Assembly (NCBI GenBank): GCA_964610395.1
Contig: CAZSXP010000002.1
Coordinates: 10,192 to 74,191 of the forward strand
Direction: 5' to 3'
Source: an uncultured Gammaproteobacteria bacterium
GTDB taxonomy: Bacteria; Patescibacteriota; Microgenomatia; UBA8517
Length of the DNA stretch: 64,000 bases
The notes under the pieces were generated by a model, which was not told the DNA's origin, did not search any database, and saw only the letters and a program-made list of their open reading frames with translations. Position 1 is the first letter of the stretch. Each line of letters starts with the position of its first letter. Shown piece after piece: positions 1,528 through 52,573 of the stretch. Made by a program: the position numbers and the translations under genes.

Positions 1528-1977
1528 TTGTATAATCATAACTATATGAAAGTTTTTAATAAGAAAGCAAGTTTTGAATATGAATTAACCAGTGAAAGGA
1601 TAGAGGCTGGCTTGGTTTTAAAAGGAATTGAAGCTAAAGCCTTTAGAGATGGCAGGATAAATCTCTCTTCCGCCCATGTCAGAGTATTAGACGGCGAGAT
1701 ATATTTAATTAATGCAAACATCGCTGTTAATGACGTAAGGGGATATGAACCAACAAGAATGAGGAAATTACTTTTACATAAAAATGAAATACTTTCCATT
1801 ATTACCAAAATGAAACAGAAAAAGTTGCAAATTGTGCCCACCGTGATGTATAATTCTAGGTCTCGAATCAAACTAGAACTAGTTTTAGGAAAACCAAAAA
1901 GAAAGTTTGACAAGAAAGAAAGTATTAAAGCAAAAGATATCCAAAGAGATTTGGGTAGAGAATTAAAATGGGGATGA
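1528..1977 (+). CDS. smpB: SsrA-binding protein SmpB
   Basis: SmpB-like conserved blocks (KGIEAKAFRDGRINL, RKLLLHKNEI, C-terminal K/R-rich tail). Located immediately upstream of the tmRNA. Confidence 0.85.
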   Translation: MYNHNYMKVFNKKASFEYELTSERIEAGLVLKGIEAKAFRDGRINLSSAHVRVLDGEIYLINANIAVNDVRGYEPTRMRKLLLHKNEILSIITKMKQKKLQIVPTVMYNSRSRIKLELVLGKPKRKFDKKESIKAKDIQRDLGRELKWG

Positions 1978-2338
1978 CCGGTTTCGACGGATAGCTCTTT
2001 AACAAAACAGCAAGCCAAGTTTGATAAACACTTGTCAAAAGATATCAAAAACTAAAAGCAAACTCAAAAAGTTTTGCTCCTAGTTACCAATATGCTTTAG
2101 CATATTCATAACAGGCGTCCTGAGGTTTGATTCTCGATCGAACTGACTGGGTGTAAACCAATTCGAGATGCTACTTATTTTCTTTTGATTTAGAGGAAAT
2201 TTGTAAAAGATAATTAAATCTTACCTATAAATTCCTGTCGATTGGATAAACTTATGGGGAAATATTATTAATCGAATAAGCTTGTAGAAGTTTTGTTTTT
2301 AAGTTTTTCGGATGTGGGTTCGATTCCCACCATCTCCA
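1970..2338 (+). ncRNA. ssrA: tmRNA (ssrA)
   Basis: 5' end GGGGATGACCGGTTTCGACGG matches the conserved tmRNA 5' block. 3' end GGATGTGGGTTCGATTCCCACCATCTCCA is a tRNA-like T-arm/acceptor pairing with the 5' GGGGATG. Putative tag ORF starts at GCA about 89 nt in (ANSKSFAPSYQYALAYS then TAA). It directly follows smpB and overlaps its stop. Confidence 0.8.
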
Positions 2339-3845
2339 CATAATTAGTTTTTGAAGCTGTCGGGCTAGTAATTAGCCCGATAACAGGGTCTAAATCAGCG
2401 GTTCCAAATCCTGAGAGTTTGTCATAAATCAGTTTTCTTCCAAAATACATATTAAAGATTGTTCTTTTATCCTCTCCGTTATCACTTTTCCACAATACCA
2501 TGGGGTTTTTCAATGTTTCTAATACCAAATCTTTTGCGGTTCCAAACTCTGAATCGGAGTATTCCGACACCTTAATTTTCTCTAAACCTTCCTTTTCTAT
2601 AATCAGCTTTTTTATCTCCCCCTCATATACTGACACCAAATCATCAGACGTTTTGACTAGTCTCATTTTTAGCTTTTCCAATGACTTGTCTATTTCAACC
2701 AGCTTACTAGTGTTTGATTCACTAATCTCATTGCTAGAGGCTCTACGTTGCGTCCAGACGTCATCTAAGATAGCCTTAGCTAAATCCACAGCACCAACCA
2801 TAGGTTTACTTGCCGATAGTAAGTTTTTAAAATTTGTTTCGACATCGTTTGCATGGATTGATTTATATCGATAAGGACACCCTTTAGTTTTACACGTATA
2901 GTTAGCATAGTATTTACTTCTACCTTTGTTTCTGCTCCCAGTAAGAGGTTTTTCACATTTCGAGCATAAAATTAATTGGCGTAGTGGGAAATCTGGGTCA
3001 TAGTCTTTTCTGATACCGTATTTTTTATTTCCTGAAAGTCGTTCTTGAACCTTATCATACGTTTCAATTGAGACAAAACCCTCGTGATGACCTTTTCTTC
3101 GAGATACTCCCCAAGATTTAAATTCTATATAACCAGCATAAAGTATCTGAGTCAAGGTCAATCTTGCACCATTAAAAGATATTATTCTTTTAATTCCCAT
3201 TGATTCAAATTCATGATTAATGAATTGTTTAACATCATTAATTGTTGATAACGACCCATCCGCAAATGATTCAATTGCTTGTTTATATACTCCAGCATAG
3301 GGCTCATTGGAAACTAATAACTTACCATGAATAGGATTCCTTTCTGTTACAAGTGCTAATGGATGACCAAAAGACCAATAACCTTGTTCAAGCCTAGCTT
3401 TTTGCTTTTGAATTACTTGTTTCCTATTTTGATTCCTTTCCAGTTCAGCTTGTGCCGCAAGAACTGTTTCTACAAACTTACCCTCTGGAGTATCTTCAAA
3501 TTTAAAATTAGGGCTTTCTACGCTTCCATTTCTGCCATAGATTTCCTTTTTTAATTGAAAGTGTACTTGTGTATCTCTAGCGAAGCGTTTTAAATCATCA
3601 AAAACAACAATCGTATTTGTCGGTTCGTGAATATATTTCTCAAGTTCAGACAAAAGCTCTTTCATGGCTGGTCTCTCAAACAAACCGCCACTTTTGCCTT
3701 CGTCCCTAAATATACCTACGACTTTATATCCTTGTCCAATAGCATAGTCTCGACACCTCTTTTCTTGACTGTCCAATCCATGTCCTTCATTAACTTGTCT
3801 CTCAGAACTTACACGAGAATATATTAAGCATTTACGATTTTCCAT
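2268..3845 (-). CDS. large serine recombinase (integrase)
   Basis: N-terminal resolvase-type catalytic motif (LIYSRVSSERQ...GHGLDSQ), recombinase domain, zinc ribbon (CSKCEK...CKTKGC) and coiled-coil. The track ORF begins with a TTG at 3869; the first ATG (MENRKC) is at 3845. Its 3' end reads antisense through the tmRNA 3' end (GIEPT translation). Confidence 0.8.
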   Translation of the reverse strand: MENRKCLIYSRVSSERQVNEGHGLDSQEKRCRDYAIGQGYKVVGIFRDEGKSGGLFERPAMKELLSELEKYIHEPTNTIVVFDDLKRFARDTQVHFQLKKEIYGRNGSVESPNFKFEDTPEGKFVETVLAAQAELERNQNRKQVIQKQKARLEQGYWSFGHPLALVTERNPIHGKLLVSNEPYAGVYKQAIESFADGSLSTINDVKQFINHEFESMGIKRIISFNGARLTLTQILYAGYIEFKSWGVSRRKGHHEGFVSIETYDKVQERLSGNKKYGIRKDYDPDFPLRQLILCSKCEKPLTGSRNKGRSKYYANYTCKTKGCPYRYKSIHANDVETNFKNLLSASKPMVGAVDLAKAILDDVWTQRRASSNEISESNTSKLVEIDKSLEKLKMRLVKTSDDLVSVYEGEIKKLIIEKEGLEKIKVSEYSDSEFGTAKDLVLETLKNPMVLWKSDNGEDKRTIFNMYFGRKLIYDKLSGFGTADLDPVIGLITSPTASKTNYVEMVGIEPTSEKLKNKTSTSLFD

Positions 3846-3987
3846 ATTTTTCTTCAATTGTTTTACCAACTACTCTCTCACACAACCCATAAAGCTTAAT
3901 CAATATACTTTCGACCTCTTGGTCGTTTAGGTTGTCGTTTTTAAGCACTTTTCTCGCCTCTGCAACAGTGATTTTTCTTTGTACCAT
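3832..3987 (-). CDS. small ORF (51 aa) upstream of and overlapping the integrase start; possible HTH/RDF-like protein
   Basis: ATG...MVQRKITVAEARKVLK... read manually. Below the track length cutoff; overlaps the integrase start in another frame. Confidence 0.25.
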   Translation of the reverse strand: MVQRKITVAEARKVLKNDNLNDQEVESILIKLYGLCERVVGKTIEEKYGKS

Positions 3988-4093
3988 AGCCACAATATGT
4001 GGCGCTTGGAAATTATGACTCTCACTGTTAAGCCTTGTTCACCTTACCTGTACAAGAAGCTAAACAACTTATACAGATGCGAAACAAGAAGCG

Positions 4094-4399
4094 CTACTTT
4101 TCTACTAAATTAAAATCTTCAAGATAAGTTATTAATGTCTTTCTATTAACAGTATCCTCATCTAGTTTCCACATATATTGTCCTTTTCCATCTCTACCAA
4201 CTTTTTTAATTAGATTTGCTCTCACAAGGGATGTAATCTTTCCACCCAAAGCTTGACTACCTTGTCTCATCCCACTAACACCAGAAAGCCTGGCTTGAGA
4301 AACAATGCTCTCTACAGCGAACTCTTGAAGAAGCTTTAACTGGTCTCTTTTCCAACCTCTTAATAAGTTGAGATTATACTTATCGTTATCATCTACCAT
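4094..4399 (-). CDS. hypothetical protein (possible winged-helix DNA-binding)
   Basis: 101-aa ORF adjacent to the integrase; weak wHTH-like pattern. Confidence 0.35.
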   Translation of the reverse strand: MVDDNDKYNLNLLRGWKRDQLKLLQEFAVESIVSQARLSGVSGMRQGSQALGGKITSLVRANLIKKVGRDGKGQYMWKLDEDTVNRKTLITYLEDFNLVEK

Positions 4400-4651
4400 A
4401 GATGACTATAATAGAGCATAAGTATTTAGTTTGTCAAGTGTTAATAAATTAAAATAATGACCCATAAAACGACCTCTTCTTGAATCAATTGTGCCTGAAA
4501 GAAACAAAAAAGTAAGGTTGTGTAAGGTAAAGATAGCATCTTATAGCTTCGCTAATCGATTAGCAGAAATAGAGAAAGTATGAAATAATTATTTTAATCT
4601 AAACAATAAATCCTGTGTATCTGCTATCAATGGAATACTAAAAGAAAGAAA

Positions 4652-4792
4652 ATGACAAAAAAACTTATCGGTTTATATAATGTTAAAAATTTGTTAAATA
4701 AAGACTACACAACAGAGCAGATAGGCAAAGCTATATACGAGGACATGATGAAGAAAATAAAAGAGATGAAGAAGGGAAAGAGTAAGAAGTAA
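4652..4792 (+). CDS. small basic hypothetical protein (46 aa)
   Basis: Manual ORF in the 440-bp intergenic region: MTKKLIGLYNVKNLLNKDYTTEQIGKAIYEDMMKKIKEMKKGKSKK. Confidence 0.2.
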   Translation: MTKKLIGLYNVKNLLNKDYTTEQIGKAIYEDMMKKIKEMKKGKSKK

Positions 4793-4841
4793 CTTAGATA
4801 TAAGACATAAAAACAGTTAAAGAAGAAAAAGACTAATATTA

Positions 4842-5408
4842 TTAATTATTTTCTTTTATTTTTTTCAGCCAAGTGTAATATTCTTCAGGAAGTTCATATT
4901 CATTGGTGGTAGTATTTTTTAATACATAATTTCCATTTTCATATCTCCACTCTTCAGATATACCAGATGTTGCATATAAACCTGTTTCATCCCAACTGTT
5001 GGTGTATGAAATAAATATACCACCACCTTTATCGTCCTCCATATTTCCATAACCTGGAACTTGAAATCCAACATTTGCTCCACCATTGTTTTTGAAAACA
5101 ACCTTCCCCTTATCAATTATCCATATCTCTCCAGCACCTCTATTCATAGTAGTAGGTACTTCGACTATGCTTTCGTACACTCCATCATTATCAGTATCGT
5201 ATGTACTATAAACAGGACATCTTCCTGTACATTCAGGAGCCAAGTTTAATGCTAATAATCTATTTTCCTCGGATAAAGCACTATTTTCTGAAATCAGAAG
5301 TTTATTCTTATTCCATACCTTAATATATAAAAGTAATACTAACAGGCAAATTAATGACAATATTGATACTATTGAAAGATGTTTTTTCATAAATTTTAAA
5401 TTAATCAT
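4842..5408 (-). CDS. secreted/membrane-anchored hypothetical protein
   Basis: N-terminal hydrophobic signal-anchor (LSIVSILSLICLLVLLLYI), then a soluble domain. Confidence 0.45.
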   Translation of the reverse strand: MINLKFMKKHLSIVSILSLICLLVLLLYIKVWNKNKLLISENSALSEENRLLALNLAPECTGRCPVYSTYDTDNDGVYESIVEVPTTMNRGAGEIWIIDKGKVVFKNNGGANVGFQVPGYGNMEDDKGGGIFISYTNSWDETGLYATSGISEEWRYENGNYVLKNTTTNEYELPEEYYTWLKKIKENN

Positions 5409-5440
5409 AATTTATTATACAACCATCCTGTAAAAACACT

Positions 5441-5674
5441 TTAGATATTGATGTTTATAAAATTCTTGGTATATTTGTATTTTTCAAACTTATCTATTTC
5501 TTCTTCTATATTTTTATAGACATCTTCGGTTATATCAACTAAAACTGGTTTATTATTCCAGTTTAGTTTTATATCCACATTTATATCATTGGTGGAAACA
5601 TTAATAATTTTATTTTTATTTATATTATCATGGTAAGAGCGGGAAACCCTCTTTTTAGTATACTTAGAAACCAA
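5441..5674 (-). CDS. hypothetical protein
   Basis: 77-aa ORF in the same minus-strand gene run. Confidence 0.3.
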   Translation of the reverse strand: MVSKYTKKRVSRSYHDNINKNKIINVSTNDINVDIKLNWNNKPVLVDITEDVYKNIEEEIDKFEKYKYTKNFININI

Positions 5675-5731
5675 CCCCTATAAGCCTCTTTTCCACAGTG
5701 GTAGGGTCGATATTTTCTATCAGGCAATATT

Positions 5732-6268
5732 TTATTTATTAACCTTATCTTTGATTACATTTTTTGTTTCTTTGTATGACTTGTAATAGAAATAGATAGG
5801 GAATGACCAAATCAATCCAGTAAAACCATTAAGTAGATTAAATATTGTAAACACTGTTGAAAAAATCAACATTCCCTTTGATATTTTTAGTGCATGGTTC
5901 AAATTTTCAATCCCCTGATGTTTAAGTTTCCACCCAAAATAATAATAGGGTGCGTTAAGTATGGCTGCAACGATTGCATCTGTTAAAACGTTTTCAATTT
6001 TAAAACCCACGACCATGGCAACAACAAACGCACCCACCGCTTTGAACATAGATAAATTTCCAGTCGTTAAATATGTTTTTTCCAACATAGATAATTGTTC
6101 TTTGTTCATGTTAGTTTTCGGCTCCTCAGTTAAAGGTGAGTGGCTCTTGTTGGATAAATTTTCTCTTTTTCTATCTAGAATTTCTTTGTTGACAGCAATT
6201 ACTTTGTCACAATTTTGACAAAATTTAGAGATTTCTATAACTTTTTTTCCACAATTTATACAATACAT
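5732..6268 (-). CDS. zinc-ribbon domain membrane protein
   Basis: N-terminal CINCGK...CQNCDK zinc ribbon followed by TM helices. Confidence 0.45.
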   Translation of the reverse strand: MYCINCGKKVIEISKFCQNCDKVIAVNKEILDRKRENLSNKSHSPLTEEPKTNMNKEQLSMLEKTYLTTGNLSMFKAVGAFVVAMVVGFKIENVLTDAIVAAILNAPYYYFGWKLKHQGIENLNHALKISKGMLIFSTVFTIFNLLNGFTGLIWSFPIYFYYKSYKETKNVIKDKVNK

Positions 6269-6274
6269 GTTGAA

Positions 6275-6610
6275 TTATTTTATATATTGGACATTACAAC
6301 TTTTAGAAATTTCTTGCATGGTTGTATTGTCGATGTTTTTATTATTATTTCCCATTTTTTCCAAATCATCTAATGTATAAACTTTTCTTATTTCGTTATA
6401 TATGCAATCACAAGAGTCTTGCGTGAATTTTTTTATACATTCTTCTGTGACCTGCTTTTTGAGTTGTTCGTCTATTCGGTCATTTCCTGCCATTTGTTCA
6501 ATGTAAGGACGAGAAAGACTAACGCTTAACTTAGCTAATAACCATCCTAAAATACCTAATAGGAATAATTTTCCCCAACTTATACCCTTTTTTTCTTTCT
6601 TTTCGTCCAT
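6275..6610 (-). CDS. hypothetical membrane protein
   Basis: TM segment plus Cys-containing soluble tail. The track start at 6685 overlaps the upstream gene; MDEKKEKK at 6610 is the more plausible start. Confidence 0.35.
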   Translation of the reverse strand: MDEKKEKKGISWGKLFLLGILGWLLAKLSVSLSRPYIEQMAGNDRIDEQLKKQVTEECIKKFTQDSCDCIYNEIRKVYTLDDLEKMGNNNKNIDNTTMQEISKSCNVQYIK

Positions 6611-6612
6611 AG

Positions 6613-6858
6613 CTATTTTTCTGAATACCGTTTGTCTTTCAAAACTGAACAAAGAAGGGTGCCAATTAAAAAAGCGAAAAACCAAGCCATACCAAATCCT
6701 CCCATAAAAAATCGTATTTCGTCGGTTAACTTATCTAAAAGTACCAACAAAACCGCAAGTACAAAAATAATGAGCAGAGGTCCGTAAAAAAAGATAAGTG
6801 ACCATCTTACAATTTCTTTCACATCCTTTGACTCGCCTGTCTTATATCTTTCCATCAT
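6613..6858 (-). CDS. small two-TM membrane protein
   Basis: 81-aa ORF with two hydrophobic helices. Confidence 0.35.
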   Translation of the reverse strand: MMERYKTGESKDVKEIVRWSLIFFYGPLLIIFVLAVLLVLLDKLTDEIRFFMGGFGMAWFFAFLIGTLLCSVLKDKRYSEK

Positions 6859-6943
6859 TGTCTTTGTAACTAGTAATAGTTTACCAAAATACTTATCTCT
6901 GCGCTAATGGTAGTTATGGGTCATTATCATCACTATATAGAAT

Positions 6944-7171
6944 ATGGGAAAACAAAGATTACTCACCAGGGAGGATAAGGGGCTCGCCAAGCGTATAAAA
7001 GAATTAAGAAAGGAAAAAGAAATATCCCAAGAAGAACTGTCAAATAGAATAGACGCAAATCTCTCCTATGTAGTTTATCTAGAAACAGGAAGAAGAGGAA
7101 CAAGTCTTCCAATGCTGTATAGAATTGCCAAAGCTCTTAATGTGAGGGTAAAAGACCTGTTTATTTTTTAG
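6944..7171 (+). CDS. XRE-family helix-turn-helix transcriptional regulator
   Basis: HTH pattern ISQEELSNRIDANLSYVVYLETGRR...LYRIAKALNV. Divergent from the minus-strand gene run, 86-bp spacer. Confidence 0.65.
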   Translation: MGKQRLLTREDKGLAKRIKELRKEKEISQEELSNRIDANLSYVVYLETGRRGTSLPMLYRIAKALNVRVKDLFIF

Positions 7172-7338
7172 GAAAATAATTCTATATGGTTCATATAACA
7201 GGATGTGTCTGATTATTGGGTAGAATTATTGTTAACTGTGGCTAAATTTAATGCCACTGAAGAACCTTTCAGTACAAAATACCATTTAAAAATATAGTCT
7301 TGTATTTGGTTCCAACTTTGAGTTACGATGTCCACAAA

Positions 7339-8691
7339 TTATTTGAGTTCTATGTACATGAGTTTTGGTCCGGTTAAAAGAATTATTTTGCCCTCTTCTT
7401 CTGAAACTACTATGTCTGTTGCATTTTTTATTTCATCGTTTAGATACTGAAGTTTAAATTCTCCACTTTTGTCTATAGCGACTACTCTTCCTTTTTCTTT
7501 TTCTAAAATATATACATTTTTTAATTTCTCATTTGTATAAATTGCGGTTGGATTTATAAATTGTTCACTTATTCCAGATAATGAAACAGTTTGTGGGTTT
7601 CCTAATGTAAACTTTGATACTTTTCCAGACGAAGAGAGAAGCCAAATTGATCCGTCAATTGAAACATCTTTAATTTTTGAAAAATCCACTTCAACTCCAG
7701 GAGCTAGCCATTCAGTTTTTTGGCCAAAAGTTTTGCCACTTCCTGACTGTCTAAATATTTGATTATTACTTTTATCAATTATGTAAATATTCCCAGCATA
7801 TACGTAAAACAGAGAATTTTCATCTATTTCATATACTCCATCAAGTTTATCTAAGAACAAAGTTCCTTCATATGAGGCTATTTTTTTTGTATCACCTATT
7901 TCTTCTTTGTTTGCTGCAATTTTTGCTCTTTTGGTTTTGATTCCTACATTTATAATATTTTTATTATCACTATCAAATATAAAAATATCTTCACCAGAAG
8001 AAACCATTTGACTTCCGTTAAAACCTGAAGTTTGTAATGTTAAATCCAAAAACTCTTTTACTTCCACTTTTACTTCTCCTACAATTTCTGCTTCTTTGTC
8101 TGATATATTTTTAGCAAGTTCATCTAGTTTTTCATTTTTAAATCCAGCTTTTTTTAATTCATCTGTTATATTTTTTGAACTTATAAATAATTCTCTTGCA
8201 CTGTTTTTGTCCACCACTCCTGTAATAGCTGATTCATAATTTGAAATGGCTTCATCTAGTTTAATTAAACTTTGTTTCTCAAAATCTCTATTATTTTTTT
8301 GTCTTACACCGAAGGTGACACTTACAATTAATAAAACTAAAAGAATTATTCCTACAGTAAGTGTTGTTTTTCTACTTTGTATGTTTGATTCATTTATTGG
8401 ATTATCTCTTACAAAAATTTCTTTTTGTTTATTTTCTCTTTCTTCTTCAATTGTCACTACTAATTTTTCTAAACCTTTTTCAATTGTATAAACATCTCCT
8501 ACTTGGGGAATTCCTGAAATTGAAGTTTTTTTATCTTGTGTTTCACAAAGTGTTACTGTTTTGTTATTTCGAAAAACAGTAGCTTTACAAAAAGGTTCTG
8601 TAGAAACAACTATTTTTTTAAAAAAGAAACGAATTGATCCCACACCTTCCAATTTTGGTTGACCTACATTTGATATTAATTTTAAGGACAT
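7339..8691 (-). CDS. hypothetical membrane-anchored protein with large extracytoplasmic domain
   Basis: Single TM (TVGIILLVLLIVSVTF) about 130 aa in, followed by about 320 aa of beta-rich sequence. The track start at 8712 overlaps the upstream gene; MSLKL at 8691 is likelier. Confidence 0.4.
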   Translation of the reverse strand: MSLKLISNVGQPKLEGVGSIRFFFKKIVVSTEPFCKATVFRNNKTVTLCETQDKKTSISGIPQVGDVYTIEKGLEKLVVTIEEERENKQKEIFVRDNPINESNIQSRKTTLTVGIILLVLLIVSVTFGVRQKNNRDFEKQSLIKLDEAISNYESAITGVVDKNSARELFISSKNITDELKKAGFKNEKLDELAKNISDKEAEIVGEVKVEVKEFLDLTLQTSGFNGSQMVSSGEDIFIFDSDNKNIINVGIKTKRAKIAANKEEIGDTKKIASYEGTLFLDKLDGVYEIDENSLFYVYAGNIYIIDKSNNQIFRQSGSGKTFGQKTEWLAPGVEVDFSKIKDVSIDGSIWLLSSSGKVSKFTLGNPQTVSLSGISEQFINPTAIYTNEKLKNVYILEKEKGRVVAIDKSGEFKLQYLNDEIKNATDIVVSEEEGKIILLTGPKLMYIELK

Positions 8692-8692
8692 T

Positions 8693-8905
8693 TTACAAAA
8701 TAATAATAGCAAAAACTAAGACTGCAATGGCAAACAGAAGATGTATGATTGATAATAATTTAAGTTGATTTTCAAAACCAACTTCTAATGTAGTTGTCAT
8801 TAATTGAACTTGACGAACAATAACAAAAGCAAAAATTATATATAAGACAAGTAGTATTAATATAAAAATTTTAATAACTGGCCAAATAGATAATGATAAA
8901 ATCAC
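8693..8905 (-). CDS. small membrane protein
   Basis: 70 aa, two hydrophobic helices. Confidence 0.3.
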   Translation of the reverse strand: MILSLSIWPVIKIFILILLVLYIIFAFVIVRQVQLMTTTLEVGFENQLKLLSIIHLLFAIAVLVFAIIIL

Positions 8906-11234: not shown

Positions 11235-11274
11235 CTATTTATTATAGCAGTTGATATGTGTTAAAATTTGGAAG

Positions 11275-11634
11275 ATGAAAAAAATAATTCTAAGTCTATT
11301 TCTATTTTTAGCTATATTCTCCACAAATGTGGTTAAAACTTCAGCACAACTTAGTGATTGTGGAATTGATACTGCCATTGGATGTATACCAGTTTCTGAT
11401 ACAAATGAATTTATGGGGTGGATATTGGGTTGGGCAGTTGGAGTTGGTGGTGGAATTGCATTTTTACTAATTGTTTATGCTAGTTTTATGGTAATGACAA
11501 GTCAAGGAGTTCCAGATAGATTAAAGGCGGGACAAGAATTACTAACATCAGCAATTTCAGGTTTGATTATGTTAATTTTCTCAGTCTTTATACTAAATTT
11601 TATAGGAATTGATATACTAGGTATATTTACATAA
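11275..11634 (+). CDS. pilin-like small two-TM protein, paralog 1 (VirB2/TrbC-like T4SS pilin candidate)
   Basis: Signal peptide, TM1, short loop, then TM2. Shares the family motif TM-(S/T)xG(D/A)-loop-A/K...IxxxIxG-TM...IVKLI with paralogs 2-8. Confidence 0.5.
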   Translation: MKKIILSLFLFLAIFSTNVVKTSAQLSDCGIDTAIGCIPVSDTNEFMGWILGWAVGVGGGIAFLLIVYASFMVMTSQGVPDRLKAGQELLTSAISGLIMLIFSVFILNFIGIDILGIFT

Positions 11635-11958
11635 ATGCAAGATTCACCATTTAAAGACATTGACATAGATACTGTTGGTAGTCCTGTCGTTGATATAAAC
11701 AGCGACAATTTAGATTTTGGATCAATAATTACTGGAGTTTTGCCCTACATTTTTGCTATAGCAGGTGTAGTTTTACTTTTTAATATTATCTCATCTGGAC
11801 TTAAAATGATGACGTCAGTTGGAGATCCAAAAGTAATGCAGGCAGCACAAGCAAAACTTACAACGTCAGTGATTGGAATTTTAATTTTATTTACATCATT
11901 TTGGATAGTAAAGCTTATAATGCAATTTATTGGTTTTAATGTGGTCTTATTTAATTAA
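11635..11958 (+). CDS. pilin-like small two-TM protein, paralog 2
   Basis: Conserved ...MMTSVGDPKVMQAAQAKLTTSVIGILILFTSFWIVKLIMQFIG; abuts paralog 1 (taaATG). Confidence 0.5.
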   Translation: MQDSPFKDIDIDTVGSPVVDINSDNLDFGSIITGVLPYIFAIAGVVLLFNIISSGLKMMTSVGDPKVMQAAQAKLTTSVIGILILFTSFWIVKLIMQFIGFNVVLFN

Positions 11959-11960
11959 TA

Positions 11961-12281
11961 ATGAAAAACTTAGCAATTAATATTGGTACAACTTTTTTAA
12001 ATGACACTCGTGGTGATTTATATAGAGTTGATAGTATAAGTAGATATGTTTCTGCAATCATTACAGGTGCAATTTCAATTGCAGGAATAATTTTATTATT
12101 TATTTTAATTGGTGGTGGTATTGGAATGATTTCAGGGGCTGGGAAATCAGATCCTCAAACTGTTGAAAAGGGTAAAAAAGCAGCAACTTCTGCCCTAATC
12201 GGCTTCATAGTTGTATTTTGCTCATATTGGATAGTAAAATTGATAGAGCAAATTACAGGACTATCTTTAATATCACTTTAA
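11961..12281 (+). CDS. pilin-like small two-TM protein, paralog 3
   Basis: Motif ISGAGKSDPQTVEKGKKAATSALIGFIVVFCSYWIVKLIEQITG. Confidence 0.5.
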   Translation: MKNLAINIGTTFLNDTRGDLYRVDSISRYVSAIITGAISIAGIILLFILIGGGIGMISGAGKSDPQTVEKGKKAATSALIGFIVVFCSYWIVKLIEQITGLSLISL

Positions 12282-12283
12282 CT

Positions 12284-12634
12284 ATGCAAAATTTAATAGC
12301 AGAAAATCCGTTTGGTGAAGTAACAATTCCAGCTGGTCTTTCTAGTTATGGTACGGAGCCAGGCCCTGCTTTTGGAAAATTAATCCAATTTGGGCTTAGG
12401 GCTTTAATAGTTGGTGCAGGTATCTATGCCCTATTTAATTTAGTTCTTGCAGGTTATGCTTTTATGTCTGCAGGAGATGATAGCAAAAAAGTTGCAGGTG
12501 CTTGGAGCCAAATTAGTCAGACATTAATCGGCCTTGCCTTTGCAGCTGGTGCATTTGTCTTAGCAGCCATAATAGGACAATTGATATTTAAAAACCCACT
12601 ATTTTTACTCAACCCAGTAATACCTGAACCATGA
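12284..12634 (+). CDS. pilin-like small two-TM protein, paralog 4
   Basis: Motif MSAGDDSKKVAGAW...LIGLAF..., more divergent. The ATG at 12284 (MQNLIAENPFG) is preferred over the overlapping track start. Confidence 0.45.
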   Translation: MQNLIAENPFGEVTIPAGLSSYGTEPGPAFGKLIQFGLRALIVGAGIYALFNLVLAGYAFMSAGDDSKKVAGAWSQISQTLIGLAFAAGAFVLAAIIGQLIFKNPLFLLNPVIPEP

Positions 12635-12993
12635 TGAATAAAATTGCACAAATAAAACTTTCACCCGACGGAGGATATAAAGGCTTTGGGCCCTTGGGGC
12701 TTGAACAAGGTCAAAATGGTATATCTGTTTTTGCAACATTTATTTCTTCTGCAGTTGGACTTATAACAATAATCGGTATTATCTGGGTAGTTTTTATAAT
12801 AGTAACTGGATCGGTTAGTATTATAACCTCAGGTGGAGATAAGCAAGCCCTTGAGGCTGCAAGAAAAAGGATTGCAAATGGCATAATTGGACTTGTAGTA
12901 TTAATTTCATCACTATTTATACTGTCGTTAATTGGAAAGTTAATTGGATTACCAAGCATATTAGACATTGCAACTATGATTGGATTACTATGA
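12631..12993 (+). CDS. pilin-like small two-TM protein, paralog 5
   Basis: Motif ITSGGDKQALEAARKRIANGIIGLVVLISSLFILSLIGKLIG. Confidence 0.5.
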   Translation: MMNKIAQIKLSPDGGYKGFGPLGLEQGQNGISVFATFISSAVGLITIIGIIWVVFIIVTGSVSIITSGGDKQALEAARKRIANGIIGLVVLISSLFILSLIGKLIGLPSILDIATMIGLL

Positions 12994-13367
12994 ACACTAA
13001 TTCACTATTAGCTGGGGCTGGCGTTACTGGAGATGGAAAAATCTCTAATCCCGCCATCGGAAACACACTTAATCAGATGTTGCTTAATTTACCTGAGTTT
13101 TATTTTGCTGATTTAATCAGTAGAACTATTGGTCTTTTATTTGTTTTTGGAGCACTTGCTTTTTTCTTTATGTTTCTTTGGGGGGCAATTACTTGGATAT
13201 TATCTGGTGGGGATAAAGCTCATGTTGAAAACGCTAGAGGTAGAATTACAAACGCTTTAATTGGTTTTGTATTAATGATTGCAACATTTGCAATAGTAAA
13301 ACTTATAGAAGCCTTTTTTGGAATTGATATTTTGTCTATTGACATAGGGCCTTTAGTCATTCAATAA
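12990..13367 (+). CDS. pilin-like small two-TM protein, paralog 6
   Basis: Motif LSGGDKAHVENARGRITNALIGFVLMIATFAIVKLIEAFFGIDIL. Confidence 0.5.
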   Translation: MNTNSLLAGAGVTGDGKISNPAIGNTLNQMLLNLPEFYFADLISRTIGLLFVFGALAFFFMFLWGAITWILSGGDKAHVENARGRITNALIGFVLMIATFAIVKLIEAFFGIDILSIDIGPLVIQ

Positions 13368-13380
13368 TACATATATAAAC

Positions 13381-13737
13381 ATGAATTTACTTGCAAGCGC
13401 AAATTATATAGCTCAAACAACAATTGATATTGGCAATAAAACAAAGTTGGGTGGTTTTGGTAATGCAACAGATTTAAGAATTGAGAATATGGTTTCAGGT
13501 TTTATTGGATTGATTTTAGTAATTGCAGGTTTAGCTTTCTTCTTTATTTTAGTTATTGGTGGAATTAAGTGGATTGTCTCAGGAGGAGACAAAGCTCACA
13601 CAGAAGGTGCTAGAAATCAAATTACAGCGGCTCTTGTCGGTTTAGTTATAGTTTTCTCTGCTTGGGCAATAGTTGCATTAATCAAATCATTCTTTGGAAT
13701 AGATCTTTTAAAGCTAACTATTCCATCTGGACAATAA
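13381..13737 (+). CDS. pilin-like small two-TM protein, paralog 7
   Basis: Motif VSGGDKAHTEGARNQITAALVGLVIVFSAWAIVALIKSFFGIDLL; closest to paralog 6. Confidence 0.5.
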   Translation: MNLLASANYIAQTTIDIGNKTKLGGFGNATDLRIENMVSGFIGLILVIAGLAFFFILVIGGIKWIVSGGDKAHTEGARNQITAALVGLVIVFSAWAIVALIKSFFGIDLLKLTIPSGQ

Positions 13738-13786
13738 ATAATCTTCTCTTGCTCAATTTTATTCTTTAGTCTAAACTTACTTTTAT

Positions 13787-14065
13787 ATGGCAAGTCCTGC
13801 ACCGTTATCAGCATTAGAAGACGTTTTTGGAAGTGTAGTTACTTCCCTTCTTGCGTTAGGTGGAATAGTTTTATTTTTAATGCTTCTGTCGGGTGGGTTT
13901 AAATATTTAACGTCTGGAGGTGACCCAAAGGCAGTAGAAGGGGCAAAAAACACATTAACTTATGCAATAGGTGGTTTAGTTCTTTTGGCCTTCTCATATT
14001 TGATTTTAGTCATTATCGGAACATTTACAGGAGCCGATGTCACTAATTTTGTGATTACTAAATGA
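13787..14065 (+). CDS. pilin-like small two-TM protein, paralog 8
   Basis: Motif LTSGGDPKAVEGAKNTLTYAIGGLVLLAFSYLILVIIGTFTG. Confidence 0.5.
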   Translation: MASPAPLSALEDVFGSVVTSLLALGGIVLFLMLLSGGFKYLTSGGDPKAVEGAKNTLTYAIGGLVLLAFSYLILVIIGTFTGADVTNFVITK

Positions 14066-22670: not shown

Positions 22671-24080
22671 TTAATCGTACCATTTTCTTCTGTCCCAAGG
22701 AAATAATAATTTGTCATAATCAAGATAATTGTTTCTTTTGGGTCCTAAGGCAACTAGAACAGTTGCTCTCATGCTTGGATTGTTAAATTTAGGTTCTCTA
22801 CTTTTTGAATCTATCCCTATCGAGGCATACAACATCCATCTTTTTACTGAATCGGCCTCCCTTAATTCAAATTTTGCTAATGCACCCAATGTGTTTTGAA
22901 CCCAATCCCTAATTGCGTCTACATCTCCCCATTTTATAGGAAGCTTGCCTTGTAATGTGTCAGATAATACTCCTGCCTTACCAATCTTTAATGCGTAATC
23001 AATCCACATTGAATCTGAAACATTATTCCATGGAATTTCATTCCCTGCCCTAAGATAGTCTATTAATTTTATCTTTTCACCTCCTTCGTTGGCAGTTACT
23101 TCTTCCCAAACAGATTTAACCAAATCTCTTGGATAACATTCAGGAACTATTATATCTTTGCCACCATTACTAACTCTCCAGTAATCTTTTGGGTTTTTGT
23201 TTTCATCAGCCATAAAATGAACATTTTCCACTGAAAGTTTTTTCCCATTGTTAGACTCGACCGCCATGTTATATGCCCATTCTCCAAATTTTCCATATAA
23301 TAATACCTCTGACCCCTCTTTACTAAAAGTTCCAAGTAAAACATCCATAGGGTTCATTGCAAATTTAATAGGAATATTTACAAGATCATTCATACATTCA
23401 GAAGGTCGAATTCTACCCATGTCGTTGTATTTGCTATCTAAACTCTCAAAAGTATTACCAAGATATAATAAAGTAAAGGCTATTTGCTCTGCTTCACGAG
23501 CTTTTAAGTTAAGGGTTTCTTTGTTTTCTGTTAATTTACCTCGTTGTTTATATCCTTTTAAAACATCTTCCTTTATATCATTACGAATATTTTCTCTACA
23601 CTTTAGAACTTGTTCTCTACTTTTTGCTGTTCTTAAAGAAAAACTTTCTTCTTCGTTGGTTTTAGAATTTTTCCTAGTTCCCATAATTTCATCTGTGTCG
23701 TATATTTTTATATATCGTTCAAGTGCACTTCTAACTCCTGGAACCTCATAAAGTTTTTTAACCTCTGGTGTTTGTAATCCTCCCCAGCCTTCATATTTTG
23801 AAAGAACTTCAAGTGTTGGTGGGATTGCTCTGGTTTTTTTGAAATTAGCCGCATTTGTAAATTCGATTACAATATTGTGAATTTCTCTTTCATCCCTCGT
23901 CATTTCTACATAATATACTGGAGCGGTTTCTACATTAATTGGTTGTATTGGTTTATTAAACCATTCTTGATCCTTTAAAAAAGATTGGTACTTTTCATCT
24001 GTTGATAATCTGGGACCTTGAATAGCGTCCCTTAGTGTACTTACATCAATTATGCCTCTCTGCCCATTTGCTTCTGCCAT
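22671..24080 (-). CDS. hypothetical protein (469 aa), no recognisable family
   Basis: Soluble, no TM. Carries the shared leader GGTAAAATACAACC-ATG-GCA-GAA. Confidence 0.4.
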   Translation of the reverse strand: MAEANGQRGIIDVSTLRDAIQGPRLSTDEKYQSFLKDQEWFNKPIQPINVETAPVYYVEMTRDEREIHNIVIEFTNAANFKKTRAIPPTLEVLSKYEGWGGLQTPEVKKLYEVPGVRSALERYIKIYDTDEIMGTRKNSKTNEEESFSLRTAKSREQVLKCRENIRNDIKEDVLKGYKQRGKLTENKETLNLKAREAEQIAFTLLYLGNTFESLDSKYNDMGRIRPSECMNDLVNIPIKFAMNPMDVLLGTFSKEGSEVLLYGKFGEWAYNMAVESNNGKKLSVENVHFMADENKNPKDYWRVSNGGKDIIVPECYPRDLVKSVWEEVTANEGGEKIKLIDYLRAGNEIPWNNVSDSMWIDYALKIGKAGVLSDTLQGKLPIKWGDVDAIRDWVQNTLGALAKFELREADSVKRWMLYASIGIDSKSREPKFNNPSMRATVLVALGPKRNNYLDYDKLLFPWDRRKWYD

Positions 24081-24125
24081 GGTTGTATTTTACCATTTTT
24101 TAAATAAAATGTTTTAAAAAATAAA

Positions 24126-24677: not shown

Positions 24678-25130
24678 TTAATTGGCACCCGAGAGCCCCG
24701 CAAGGGGCTCGTTTTTTGTCTCTTCTGTTGATATTAATTTTAATATCATTTTTTCTACTTCTCCAAACTGCTCTTTATTAAGATTCCCCATTTTTCTAAT
24801 CAATCGTTTTGAACTTAATATTCTAAGTTGTGACAGTATAACTGTTGACTTTCTATCTTTAAAATCAAAGGTAAAATAAAATTTTCCTTCTTTTACTTTT
24901 GAAGTTAGTGGAACACCCCAGAACATTCCTTTGTTAAACTTTCTAAAAATTAAAATTGGTCTTTCAAAATTTGTATTTTTTCCATCTATTTCATATCCGA
25001 CATTCACACCAACTGAACACCACCAAATTTCCTGTTCATGAAAAAACTTTTCTACACCCACACTATCAATCTGTGATTTTAATTTGTGCCAATTTTTGTA
25101 ATCTTTGACATACTTTGAAGCTTCTGTCAT
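24678..25130 (-). CDS. MazF/PemK-like toxin-family protein, copy 2
   Basis: Paralog of 20505..20951 (EIWWCSVGVNVGYEIDGKN..RPILIF...GVPLTSK...SQLRILSSKRL). C-terminal 12 codons are encoded by a hairpin. Confidence 0.5.
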   Translation of the reverse strand: MTEASKYVKDYKNWHKLKSQIDSVGVEKFFHEQEIWWCSVGVNVGYEIDGKNTNFERPILIFRKFNKGMFWGVPLTSKVKEGKFYFTFDFKDRKSTVILSQLRILSSKRLIRKMGNLNKEQFGEVEKMILKLISTEETKNEPLAGLSGAN

Positions 25131-25218
25131 GGTTGTATTTTACCTTAAATTAGTACAGAGAGAATGCATCACTTCGTGGGCAAAGTACCTAGTACTTAGT
25201 ATTGGTGGGATCAAAAAA

Positions 25219-25602: not shown

Positions 25603-25889
25603 TTTAAATAATAAACCTTTTTCATTGCAATTTCTTGAAATCTTTTAGATACTTTTGAGAAATCAACGACGTCAACCTTAAATGGTAAGTCAGAATTCTC
25701 AAATTCATCCTCCAGGTCAATTTTTGACATAATTGGAAGTTCTGATTTTGGTTCTACCCCTAAATCAATATCACTAAATTTCAAGTTATTCCCAATCGCT
25801 CGTGAGCCAAAAATAAATACCCTTGCACTTTTTGGATCAATATGTTTAAAAACAATCTTTTTAAATTCATCCAAATTAAAATCTGCCAT
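25599..25889 (-). CDS. mntA: MntA-like minimal nucleotidyltransferase antitoxin
   Basis: GSxxxG...SDIDL minimal NTase motif (IFGSRAIGNNLKFSDIDLGV). Confidence 0.6.
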   Translation of the reverse strand: MADFNLDEFKKIVFKHIDPKSARVFIFGSRAIGNNLKFSDIDLGVEPKSELPIMSKIDLEDEFENSDLPFKVDVVDFSKVSKRFQEIAMKKVYYLN

Positions 25890-25942
25890 AGTTGTATATT
25901 ACCTTAAATTAGTGCAGAGTACAAAGTACCTAGTACTTAGTA

Positions 25943-51819: not shown

Positions 51820-52573
51820 CGGAATATCAATACGCTACCATGATATTTTTGATTACAAGCTAACAAAACCAGAGGCCATTAAATGGCAGTATATAAATCA
51901 AAAAGTTACTGTTAGTGGGATTAAGAATAAGGGTAGACTTCAAAGAGAAAAATATTCTCAAGCAAAGCTTCTTTTGGCAACAAAAGCAGCAGAAATTATT
52001 TCAAAAATTCCTACAGTAAAATTTGTTGGTATTACAGGAGCGCTTGCTATGAATAACGCAAGTAGAGATTCCGATATAGATTTAATGATTATTACAAAAA
52101 GTGGTTTTTTATGGACAACGCGTTTATTTGTCTATTTGCTTATTTGTTTATTTGGAATTCAGACACGGAAACCAAAGTATAATTTACAAAAAGATATGTT
52201 GTGTCTAAACATGTGGATGGATGAACACTTGCTAGAGTGGAATAAAAAAGATAGAAATATTTATACGGCCCATGAAATCGCCCAAATCGTGCCATTGGTT
52301 AACAAAAACAATGTATATGAAAAATTTCTTTGGCAAAACAAGTGGATTTTAACCTACTGGCCAAATGCTGTCGCAGTACAAAGTACAAAGAGACTGCATC
52401 ACTTCGTGGGCACAGTACAGAGTAAAAAAACAAATTTTTTTGAAATTATTGCTTTTAAACTTCAATATTTATATATGAAGCCAAAAATTACAAGAGAAAT
52501 TGTTACTCCCACTCGTGCAATTTTCCACCCAAATGATTGGGGAAAGGTTGTAATTAAAAAACTTTCCTCTTGA
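51800..52573 (+). CDS. nucleotidyltransferase-domain protein (hypothetical)
   Basis: GxxxxxSRDSDIDLMIIT minimal NTase motif. Contains a copy of the dispersed 18-nt repeat at 52395-52412. Confidence 0.4.
   Translation: MELKSNNGISIRYHDIFDYKLTKPEAIKWQYINQKVTVSGIKNKGRLQREKYSQAKLLLATKAAEIISKIPTVKFVGITGALAMNNASRDSDIDLMIITKSGFLWTTRLFVYLLICLFGIQTRKPKYNLQKDMLCLNMWMDEHLLEWNKKDRNIYTAHEIAQIVPLVNKNNVYEKFLWQNKWILTYWPNAVAVQSTKRLHHFVGTVQSKKTNFFEIIAFKLQYLYMKPKITREIVTPTRAIFHPNDWGKVVIKKLSS

Follow-up and report, generated by a model that had tools for sequence, protein, structure and literature searches.

A probable integrative element at the tmRNA gene of a patescibacterial genome and the exchange of its integrase C-terminus

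The stretch of DNA herewith analyzed, 64,000 nucleotides of a patescibacterial genome on contig CAZSXP010000002.1 (hereafter the window), carries a gene for a large serine integrase (int) next to the gene for transfer-messenger RNA (tmRNA). After analysis of the junctions, the integrase and its relatives, we consider it highly probable that positions 2335-7336 represent an integrative element of 4,996 bp, which was inserted at the 3′ end of the tmRNA gene by a large serine recombinase (LSR), carries its attachment site attP inside its own int gene, and swaps the C-terminal tail of the integrase upon integration. The element is real and clearly delimited, and it is of a known kind with the exchange of the integrase tail through attP as its distinctive feature. 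The original prediction of an integrated element with a large serine integrase at the tmRNA gene was thereby borne out. The features on which this reading depends are as follows (HMM, hidden Markov model).

1528-1977, plus strand: open reading frame (ORF) of host smpB; the product (1546-1977) is 143 aa in public assemblies, and PF01668 SmpB was matched by the exact product
1970-2339, plus strand: host tmRNA gene, intact (ARAGORN; Rfam RF00023); the B arm of attB/attL consists of its T-arm and acceptor
2268-3845, minus strand: integrated isoform of the large serine integrase, 525 aa with the ATG at 3845 as start (Pfam, PHROG); 2268-2339 is host tmRNA in antisense
2335-2340: attL core TCCACA, made of the last 3 nt of the acceptor stem, the discriminator A and then CA; the sole identity between left and right junctions
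7213-7335, minus strand: orphan 40-codon integrase tail, VDIVTQSWNQIQDYIFKWYFVLKGSSVALNLATVNNNSTQ followed by a stop (tail HMM E 3.5e-18); holds the P-arm motif TTGGAAC
7331-7336: attR core TCCACA, right junction of the element
7339-8712, minus strand: host flank gene for a 415-457-aa protein (gene calls), its stop 3 nt from the core (B′ arm); homologous to the flank of the closest relative, L004

Junctions of the element and exchange of the integrase tail

The layout of smpB, an intact tmRNA gene and a convergent gene for a large serine recombinase, as described in the original prediction, was confirmed with ARAGORN, an Rfam covariance match and Pfam, and the gene order of the window was reproduced in an independent ENA assembly (L090). 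The tmRNA matched RF00023 over its full length (1970-2341; 139.6 bits, E 1.3e-54), and a G3:U70 pair could be read in its acceptor. The int ORF (2268-3869, minus strand) gives 533 aa from TTG, while its 525-aa ATG form is the database protein P0001; the integrase had been predicted as a protein of 526 aa, which is effectively this ATG form. The int stop codon (2268-2270) is located 72 nt inside the tmRNA gene, and the last 23 integrase codons together with the stop are the antisense of the tmRNA acceptor and T-arm (ending ...VEMVGIEPTSEKLKNKTSTSLFD and stop), in good agreement with the predicted antisense reading of about 23 terminal codons.

The core TCCACA, TGTGGA on the int strand, is found at 2335-2340 and again at 7331-7336, where a short core near 2339 recurring at the right end had been expected, and the core-to-core distance from 2335 to 7331 gives the element size of 4,996 bp. 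The predicted extent ending at 7171 had to be replaced by this right junction. Read along the int strand, the sequence is ...ACTAATTA-TGTGGA-GATGGTGGGAATCGAACCC at the left junction and ...CTCAAATAATT-TGTGGA-CATCGTAACTCAAAGTTGG at the right one, and the identity between attL and attR is limited to these 6 nt, in accordance with the short att core lacking long flanking direct repeats that is the hallmark of LSRs. The attP junction is predicted to be ...AAAAACTAATTA-TGTGGA-CATCGTAACTCAAAGTTGG... (in longer form ...GCTTCAAAAACTAATTATGTGGACATCGTAACTCAAAGTTGGAACC...), and the attB junction ...CCACCATC-TCCACA-AATTATTTGAGTTC... (in longer form ...GGTTCGATTCCCACCATCTCCACAAATTATTTGAGTTCTATG...). Past the left junction the integrated int ORF runs on through the tmRNA acceptor and T-arm in antisense (VEMVGIEPTSEK...). 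A search of the 64-kb window for a second tmRNA 3′ end, made with a 23-nt probe allowing 3 mismatches and with a pattern for the T-loop, detected none besides genuine tRNAs; a generic direct-repeat search of the window gave no repeat pair bounding the element, nor was the element delimited by base composition. Because TCCACA alone is shared and no second tmRNA 3′ copy is present in the window, the T-arm and acceptor must be host DNA. The proposal that the element rebuilt the tmRNA 3′ end therefore did not hold; the rebuilding runs the opposite way, the host tmRNA DNA supplying the last 23 codons of the integrase. The core GTGGA was found at both junctions of 27 related loci, and among these the attL/attR identity around it ranged from 5 to 11 nt in 26, with 15 nt in the remaining one (L011).

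The protein itself carries the features expected for an LSR. Matches were obtained with PF00239 (E 2.8e-24, residues 15-164), PF13408 Zn_ribbon_recom (E 4e-7) and PHROG 95 'integrase' (E 5e-60), together with a weak match to PF07508 (0.043). In a comparison of 39 homologues, R19, S21, S22, Q25, R66, D91, R95 and R98 were invariant and all are kept in the window integrase, the zinc-ribbon cysteines C302, C305, C326 and C331 were likewise invariant, and the AlphaFold2 (AF2) model includes long paired helices (358-406 and 409-430) in keeping with the embedded coiled coil of LSRs. With catalytic, recombinase, zinc-ribbon and coiled-coil features all present, the window integrase is, as judged by sequence and predicted structure, a large serine recombinase, its identity to known phage LSRs being 28% or less. 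Every column invariant in the 39 homologues is retained, and the gene is not a pseudogene, a state that had been named in advance as one that would speak against the prediction.

The natural C-terminus of this integrase is found at the other end of the element. Nearly all of the top 120 homologues end in VEMxGxEPxS, that is, in tmRNA antisense, and 7 end in ...V[D/E]xxxxSWNQIxxYIFxWYxxL...; the orphan tail peptide of the window, reading VDIVTQSWNQIQDYIFKWY... / VDIVTQSWNQIQDYIFKWYFVLKGSS..., matches the C-termini of these 7. Since the orphan ORF at attR encodes the natural C-terminus of the integrase, attP must be located inside the 3′ end of int. Integration replaces the 40-residue tail of the integrase by 23 antisense-tmRNA codons, behind 502 residues encoded by the element itself, and leaves the tail stranded at attR. 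The int ORF and the tail would be joined only when attP is re-formed, and excision would restore the tail; the ORF reconstructed across attP indeed matches free-form homologues from contigs with terminal overlaps.

In the codon analysis of 39 tails, GTG GAC at the core, which is invariant as DNA at the junction, and AGT TGG AAC CAA (SWNQ) were kept as nucleotides, with AAC in 32 of the 33 Asn codons of SWNQ. For tail codons 11-22 (I-x-x-Y-I-F-K-W-Y-P-x-L) the amino acid was kept and the third positions varied: Tyr was encoded by TAT (26) or TAC (9), Phe by TTT (13) or TTC (11) and Leu by at least 4 codons, the diversity of the Leu codons being 0.73 at the third position against 0.05 at the second. 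This pattern of codon use argues for selection on the tail at the protein level. In every one of the 28 reconstructions the frame of the orphan tail was free of stops over 24-58 codons, against an expectation by chance of about 0.17 for each. In the AF2 model of the free form (mean predicted local distance difference test score, pLDDT, 91) the tail is predicted as one helix (residues 509-538, pLDDT 72-82) behind a crossover linker with pLDDT below 50, and the best PDB matches of this model were 9dxh, Bxb1 9iu2, PhiC31 9tep and LI 4kis, all full-length serine integrases with probability 1.0. In the model of the integrated form the last 29 residues gave pLDDT below 50, a comparison that is indicative only since the two models were built from alignments of different depth.

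For LI integrase, Rutherford et al. described the motif for the zinc-ribbon domain as located 5 bp nearer to the centre in attB than in attP (PMC3783163). The B arm carries TTGAAC from about +17 off the core and the P arm carries TTGGAAC from about +21. In the consensus of the 27 loci, GAAC starts at +24 in the P arm (GTGGACAt..t.g.aaaaa.TTGGAACcaaaT) and at +19 in the B arm, the tmRNA antisense (GTGGAGATG.cGgGaattGAaCcCg.GTCC), that is, 5 bp further out in attP. This shift, a motif comparison for one arm of each site only, fits the spacing rule of LSRs. It appears that the integrase reads the T-loop of tmRNA as the zinc-ribbon-domain motif of attB, and the DNA-level conservation of SWNQ is best read as a predicted look-alike of the T-loop for the same domain.

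Free forms, relatives and gene content

Six of the 7 tail-bearing integrases were looked up, and they are encoded on 6 distinct contigs. P0059 is on a contig of 4,330 bp with a 127-nt terminal overlap, P0091 on contigs of 4,669 bp from two sequencing runs, which are rotations of each other with 30-nt overlaps, P0057 on a contig of 7,539 bp with a 26-nt overlap, and P0116 on a contig of 10,950 bp with a 127-nt overlap (the terminal-overlap loci are L001, 127 nt; L002/L003, 30 nt, same sequence rotated; L126, 26 nt; and L127, 127 nt); two further tail-bearing contigs are linear and incomplete. The terminal overlaps indicate circles, with strong if not absolute force, and the four distinct contigs give circle sizes of 4.2-10.8 kb. 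No tRNA or tmRNA gene was found on the 6 tail-bearing contigs, and tmRNA-like sequence at attP of the free forms with terminal overlaps was limited to 5-9 nt. As cargo, the free form L126 carries a trypsin-like protease and a TIR_2 protein (2924-4672), and L127 two DNA methyltransferases, Vsr and an HNH nuclease (2203-5943).

With the tail HMM the far boundary of 37 integrated relatives could be set at an orphan tail that lies upstream of the int junction and shares the strand of int; the elements so defined measure 2.9-10.3 kb (median 6.3 kb). Two orphan tails were observed at each of the loci L020 (4507, 5082), L029 (6444, 7447), L039 (5375, 6153) and L049 (1043, 4710), and at L011 (7413), L012 (6070), L031 (292) and L033 (753) what is left of an integrase C-terminus reads in frame into the tail (e.g. 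...TKNPAVKRDS-VDIDEISWN). Such double tails and chromosomal attP-like junctions suggest that the same tmRNA gene received insertions in tandem, or that it retains older elements in a decayed state.

The integrase family includes more than 1,500 proteins, and 350 loci were detected in a scan of one genome per species (185,579 species genomes). The survey of taxonomy and targets rests on the best 80 of these 350 loci, which are mostly from Patescibacteria (Levy-, Gottesman-, Roizman- and Amesbacteria, WWE3, Paceibacterota, Saccharibacteria, Gracili-, Peregrini- and Doudnabacteria). In most of the 80 the int 3′ end overlaps a tmRNA gene, and in deeper branches, including Alphaproteobacteria, it overlaps tRNA-Ala or tRNA-Met. 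These deeper tRNA-targeting members (L053, L055, L064, L066, L068, L070, L072, L073, L076-L078, L080, L083 and L084) have tRNA-Ala-antisense int ends in several Alphaproteobacteria and in one each of Paceibacterota, Gracilibacteria and Zambryskibacteria, and tRNA-Met-antisense ends in Alphaproteobacteria. The acceptor end ...CTCCA is common to tmRNA and tRNA-Ala. The tail motif was not found within 10 kb upstream of int at the alphaproteobacterial tRNA-Ala and tRNA-Met loci. In IMG/VR only one distant relative was detected, at 32% identity, and we found no published description of this patescibacterial family.

The closest relative, L004, has an integrase 87% identical to that of the window and aligns in the flanks, tmRNA, int, orf53 and tail, but not across window positions 4097-7266; the nucleotide identity is about 81% for int, orf53 and tail, and 73-79% for the flanks. 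Comparison with genomes lacking the insertion had been proposed as a check. No empty site was found in the same species, and L004 is occupied, but other patescibacterial smpB-tmRNA loci with the last 26 nt identical are unoccupied. A metagenome scan with the last 24 nt of the tmRNA gave 28 loci, all from other taxa and none from the same species, which serve as unoccupied examples. Exact look-up of smpB and the neighbouring 208-aa protein recovered only contigs with the same order or broken before the junctions. Among the unoccupied loci, L115 repeats the last 19 nt of tmRNA about 200 nt downstream (5923-5941), and in L106 and L115 the complement of the acceptor end, GTGGAGATGAGC, comes after the tmRNA terminator hairpin; such repeats may have been left by earlier insertions or may represent hairpins in extended form.

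The remaining genes of the window element are listed below.

3832-3993, minus strand: orf53, a protein of about 50 aa (53 aa from GTG, 51 aa from ATG), overlapping the int start by 14 nt
4094-4399, minus strand: orf101, predicted winged-helix-like DNA-binding protein of 101 aa, first gene of a putative orf101-orf53-int operon
4408-4437, minus strand: promoter-like site TTGACA-18-TATTAT upstream of orf101 (11/12 matches; consensus scan only)
4842-6858, minus strand: variable cargo block (ORFs, public gene calls), made of the next five entries
4842-5408, minus strand: N-terminally anchored or secreted protein of 188 aa, cargo ORF
5441-5674, minus strand: cargo protein of 77 aa (ORF)
5732-6268, minus strand: Zn-ribbon membrane protein of 178 aa, cargo ORF
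6275-6610/6685, minus strand: cargo protein of 111/136 aa (ORF)
6613-6858, minus strand: cargo protein of 81 aa (ORF)
6944-7171, plus strand: XRE-family helix-turn-helix regulator (PF01381, E 2e-11), divergent from the cargo and beside the attR end

Across 39 related elements a conserved backbone was recognized, consisting of int with orf53 (29 elements), XRE (16) and the winged helix-turn-helix (wHTH) protein (10). The small ORF overlapping the int start, suspected beforehand to be a partner of the integrase, is indeed conserved: the orf53 cluster occurs in 29 of the 39 elements, in each case overlapping int or directly upstream, and translationally coupled to it. Pfam, PHROG and PADLOC gave no match for orf53, and a profile search of PDB gave only noise; from its position alone it is a candidate directionality factor or regulator. 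The orf101 cluster, present in 10 elements, matches the C-terminal wHTH domain of Csa3 in profile search (E 3.5e-4), and the XRE cluster is present in 16 related elements. The predicted cargo, a Zn-ribbon membrane protein, small membrane proteins and an XRE gene, is all present; the proteins of the variable cargo block belong to no Pfam, PHROG or PADLOC family, unrecognizable as had been stated, and the cargo is wholly unlike that of L004.

With respect to the host locus, the tmRNA tag predicted by ARAGORN is ANSKSFAPSYQYALAYS followed by a stop, read in the frame at window positions 2058-2111. The unusual ending ...AYS had been pointed out from the sequence, and it is kept in L004 (7795-8163), of which the tag differs by one F-to-Y change; among related patescibacterial tmRNAs the tag mostly closes with ...A[FYL]A, ...VAA or a similar sequence. 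The ...AYS ending is a property of the host tmRNA and unrelated to the element. A T-run is located 8-14 nt 3′ of tmRNA in nearly all elements, within Lys codons of int (window 2348-2353; about 25 related loci), and in L011, L013 and L033 a GC hairpin and then a T-run directly follow tmRNA. The element may supply a substitute terminator or 3′ trailer for tmRNA, the own terminator of which was displaced to attR. Outside the element, window positions 11251-14065 carry a row of genes for small membrane proteins resembling type IV secretion system (T4SS) pilins, followed by a gene for an 846-aa protein; PF18895 is on record for genes of L085 identical to these pilin-like genes, and such a row is typical of candidate-phyla-radiation genomes. 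A 38-nt intergenic sequence (TCTGYCATRGTTGTATWTTACC...) occurs three times (24073-24110, 25123-25160 and 25882-25919), and a 43-nt sequence beside it occurs at 25152-25194 and, 27 kb apart and with 88% identity, at 52382-52424; both may be shared regulatory or RNA motifs.

Proposed mechanism and alternative readings

From the knowledge of LSRs, dimers of the integrase would be expected on both attP and attB, with strand exchange at a dinucleotide of the TCCACA core. When the element is free, the int ORF crosses attP and ends in the tail of about 40 residues, V-D-x4-SWNQIxxYIFxWYxxL, which is proposed to be an amphipathic helix working only in this form. After integration, excision would fall to the tail-less isoform made from the chromosome, with the coupled 53-aa protein as the probable directionality factor; the wHTH and XRE proteins would regulate the element, of which the middle would serve as exchangeable cargo. 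Translation of the tail requires an intact attP, and selection can therefore reach it only via integration or via the behaviour or control of the free state. A role of the tail as a directionality switch, as a stability signal or simply as structural completion is inferred only. We propose, as a tentative extension that is rather doubtful in its full form, that the integration state sets the isoform of the integrase: the helix, kept by selection, would be needed for recombination of attP with attB or would license it, the helix-less chromosomal form would be restricted to excision with the 53-aa factor, and this built-in switch of directionality and regulation would operate across a very large and so far undescribed family of 3-10-kb elements of Patescibacteria, the integrase recognizing the universally conserved T-loop and the alanine-type acceptor end of tmRNA or tRNA-Ala.

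Several observations weigh against a mobile element of this kind. Neither an empty site nor a circle was found for this element or species, and no replication, transfer or virion genes were recognized in Pfam and PHROG scans. The same site is occupied in L004 and int is about as diverged as the flanks, so that long vertical residence is also compatible with the data. Tandem chromosomal copies could mimic the terminal overlaps of the free forms. As SWNQ is constrained as DNA, part of the apparent protein conservation of the tail is conservation of the att site, and since no mirrored GAAC motif was found in the P′ and B′ arms of the 27-locus consensus, the symmetry of the site falls short of that of textbook LSR sites. 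If the recombinase module were a long-resident ssrA neighbour, fixed or domesticated and no longer mobile, with the cargo changed by local turnover, then the occupied site of L004, the divergence of int, orf53 and tail (81% identity) close to that of the flanks (73-79%), and the lack of an empty site, a circle, or recognizable replication or transfer genes would all be accounted for. An immobile module would, however, hardly retain all invariant residues of the integrase, nor an open orphan tail with its motif kept although separated from int, as is expected only if the ORF spanning attP is still in use; related contigs with terminal overlaps exist, one of them recovered from two separate runs, and patescibacterial tmRNAs with the same last 26 nt are unoccupied, only 350 loci having been found in 185,579 species genomes. 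We therefore regard loss of mobility as unlikely. Much less credible still, indeed the least probable of the explanations considered, is that a tmRNA 3′ end brought in by the element takes the place of that of the host, in the manner of tyrosine-integrase islands at tRNA genes (tDNAs) and of the Dehalococcoides ssrA islands. The 72-nt overlap of the int ORF with tmRNA, and the 20-bp ssrA repeat at the far end of the serine-recombinase islands of Dehalococcoides (PMC3146451), would be in line with such replacement, but the 64 kb holds no second 23-nt copy even with 3 mismatches, identity of the junctions is confined to TCCACA, the two att sites have no more than 5-11 nt in common in 26 of the 27 loci, and the free forms carry only 5-9 nt of tmRNA-like sequence.

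The tail might, alternatively, not be a functional peptide, its conservation being on the DNA level only, as the P arm of attP or as a promoter or operator near attR; the natural integrase would then end in any sequence that happens to lie beyond the crossover. In support of this view, GTG GAC and AGT TGG AAC CAA are kept almost without synonymous codons, TTGGAAC is located where the zinc-ribbon domain of an LSR would bind attP, and McMurdie et al. held a non-functional, variable C-terminus to be a trivial possibility for DsiB of Dehalococcoides (PMC3146451). More than about 30 bp from the core, however, beyond the typical attP half-site of about 25 bp, the residues are kept while third positions vary; the frame is open for 24-58 codons in each of the 28 reconstructions, and the predicted 30-residue helix has pLDDT 72-82, against less than 50 for the tmRNA-antisense tail. 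Conservation on the DNA level alone is thus improbable, to about the same degree as loss of mobility. A degraded prophage or phage satellite, instead of a plasmid-like integrative element, would agree with the PHROG integrase match, with the XRE repressor-like gene and with serine integrases being typical of temperate phages. This origin is nevertheless very improbable: neither the window element nor the four related terminal-overlap elements carry structural, packaging or lysis genes detectable with Pfam and PHROG, the single relative in IMG/VR is only 32% identical, and phage LSRs are at most 28% identical to the integrase. On balance, the integrative element with attP inside int remains the reading we prefer.

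Comparison with known systems and significance

The integrase shares with the LSRs of phages (LI/A118, Bxb1, PhiC31, SPbeta) the domain architecture, the fold, short att sites, the 5-bp shift of the zinc-ribbon-domain motif and a small adjacent gene for a possible directionality factor. It differs in the target, the end of an RNA gene instead of protein-coding or intergenic DNA, in the location of attP inside int, in sequence (identity of 28% or less), in an extra C-terminal region and a tail helix present only in the free form, and in the strong asymmetry of the outer att arms. An attP within the int ORF is also known for the 'suicidal' tyrosine integrases of archaeal SSV type, for which integration into a tRNA-type gene alters int (PMC7253208). 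The SSV-type enzyme is an unrelated tyrosine recombinase that is split and inactivated, whereas here a serine integrase exchanges only the last 40 of about 540 residues, with all catalytic and DNA-binding domains intact. A second conceptual parallel is the integration-dependent immunity of mycobacteriophage BPs and its relatives (PMC4557955), in which attP is located in the 3′ end of the repressor gene, recombination is by a tyrosine integrase, and what the protein loses is a degradation tag of ssrA type. Both systems have a C-terminus that differs between integrated and free forms, in BPs with a resulting difference in the behaviour of the protein; here the affected gene is the serine integrase itself, and no obvious degron is found in the tail.

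With the tyrosine-integrase tDNA islands collected by Islander (PMC4383910) the element has in common the ssrA 3′ end as target and a host gene left intact, but the Islander signature is missing in that it has neither a tyrosine integrase nor a displaced tDNA fragment. In the Islander paper serine recombinases were not known to target tDNAs (PMC4383910), and the working assumption that serine integrases avoid tRNA and tmRNA genes is contradicted by the 350 loci of this family. Mobile elements of the candidate phyla radiation are poorly known. One TIGER survey set a minimum element size of 5 kb, and the lack of a long direct repeat together with the size of many members, near or below this cutoff, may explain why they have for the most part escaped report from candidate-phyla-radiation genomes. 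The TIR, protease and restriction-modification genes of the free forms imply that such elements may shuttle defence or surface functions among ultra-small bacteria, and an LSR with the near-universal 3′ end of tmRNA as attB could serve for DNA insertion in bacteria without engineered landing pads.

The nearest precedent is provided by the DsiB islands of Dehalococcoides, in which the gene for a serine recombinase of about 540 aa lies beside ssrA in the opposite orientation and in every case overlaps attL/ssrA with its 3′ end (PMC3146451), as int overlaps tmRNA by 72 nt here. The dsiB gene has no stop codon inside the island, and the authors raised the possibility that it is made whole only when the element is circular; the islands have a 20-bp direct repeat of ssrA at attR, insertion at the T-loop and divergent DsiB C-termini, and share a module of six genes (DsiB, the small recombinase DsiA, RecF-like, ParB, Mom and an embedded tRNA-like gene), reductive dehalogenase operons being among their cargo (PMC3146451). 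The elements described here differ in a core of 5-6 nt at the acceptor end with no 20-bp repeat (up to 3 mismatches), in a size of 3-10 kb, and in a backbone of orf53, wHTH and XRE genes, with no domains of the six-gene module and no internal tRNA in the window element. Compared with the published description of DsiB, the tail across attP is here conserved, with signs of selection at the protein level. The location of attP inside int gives two natural isoforms of one integrase, and it makes the 2011 speculation of McMurdie testable with respect to the control of directionality in LSRs.

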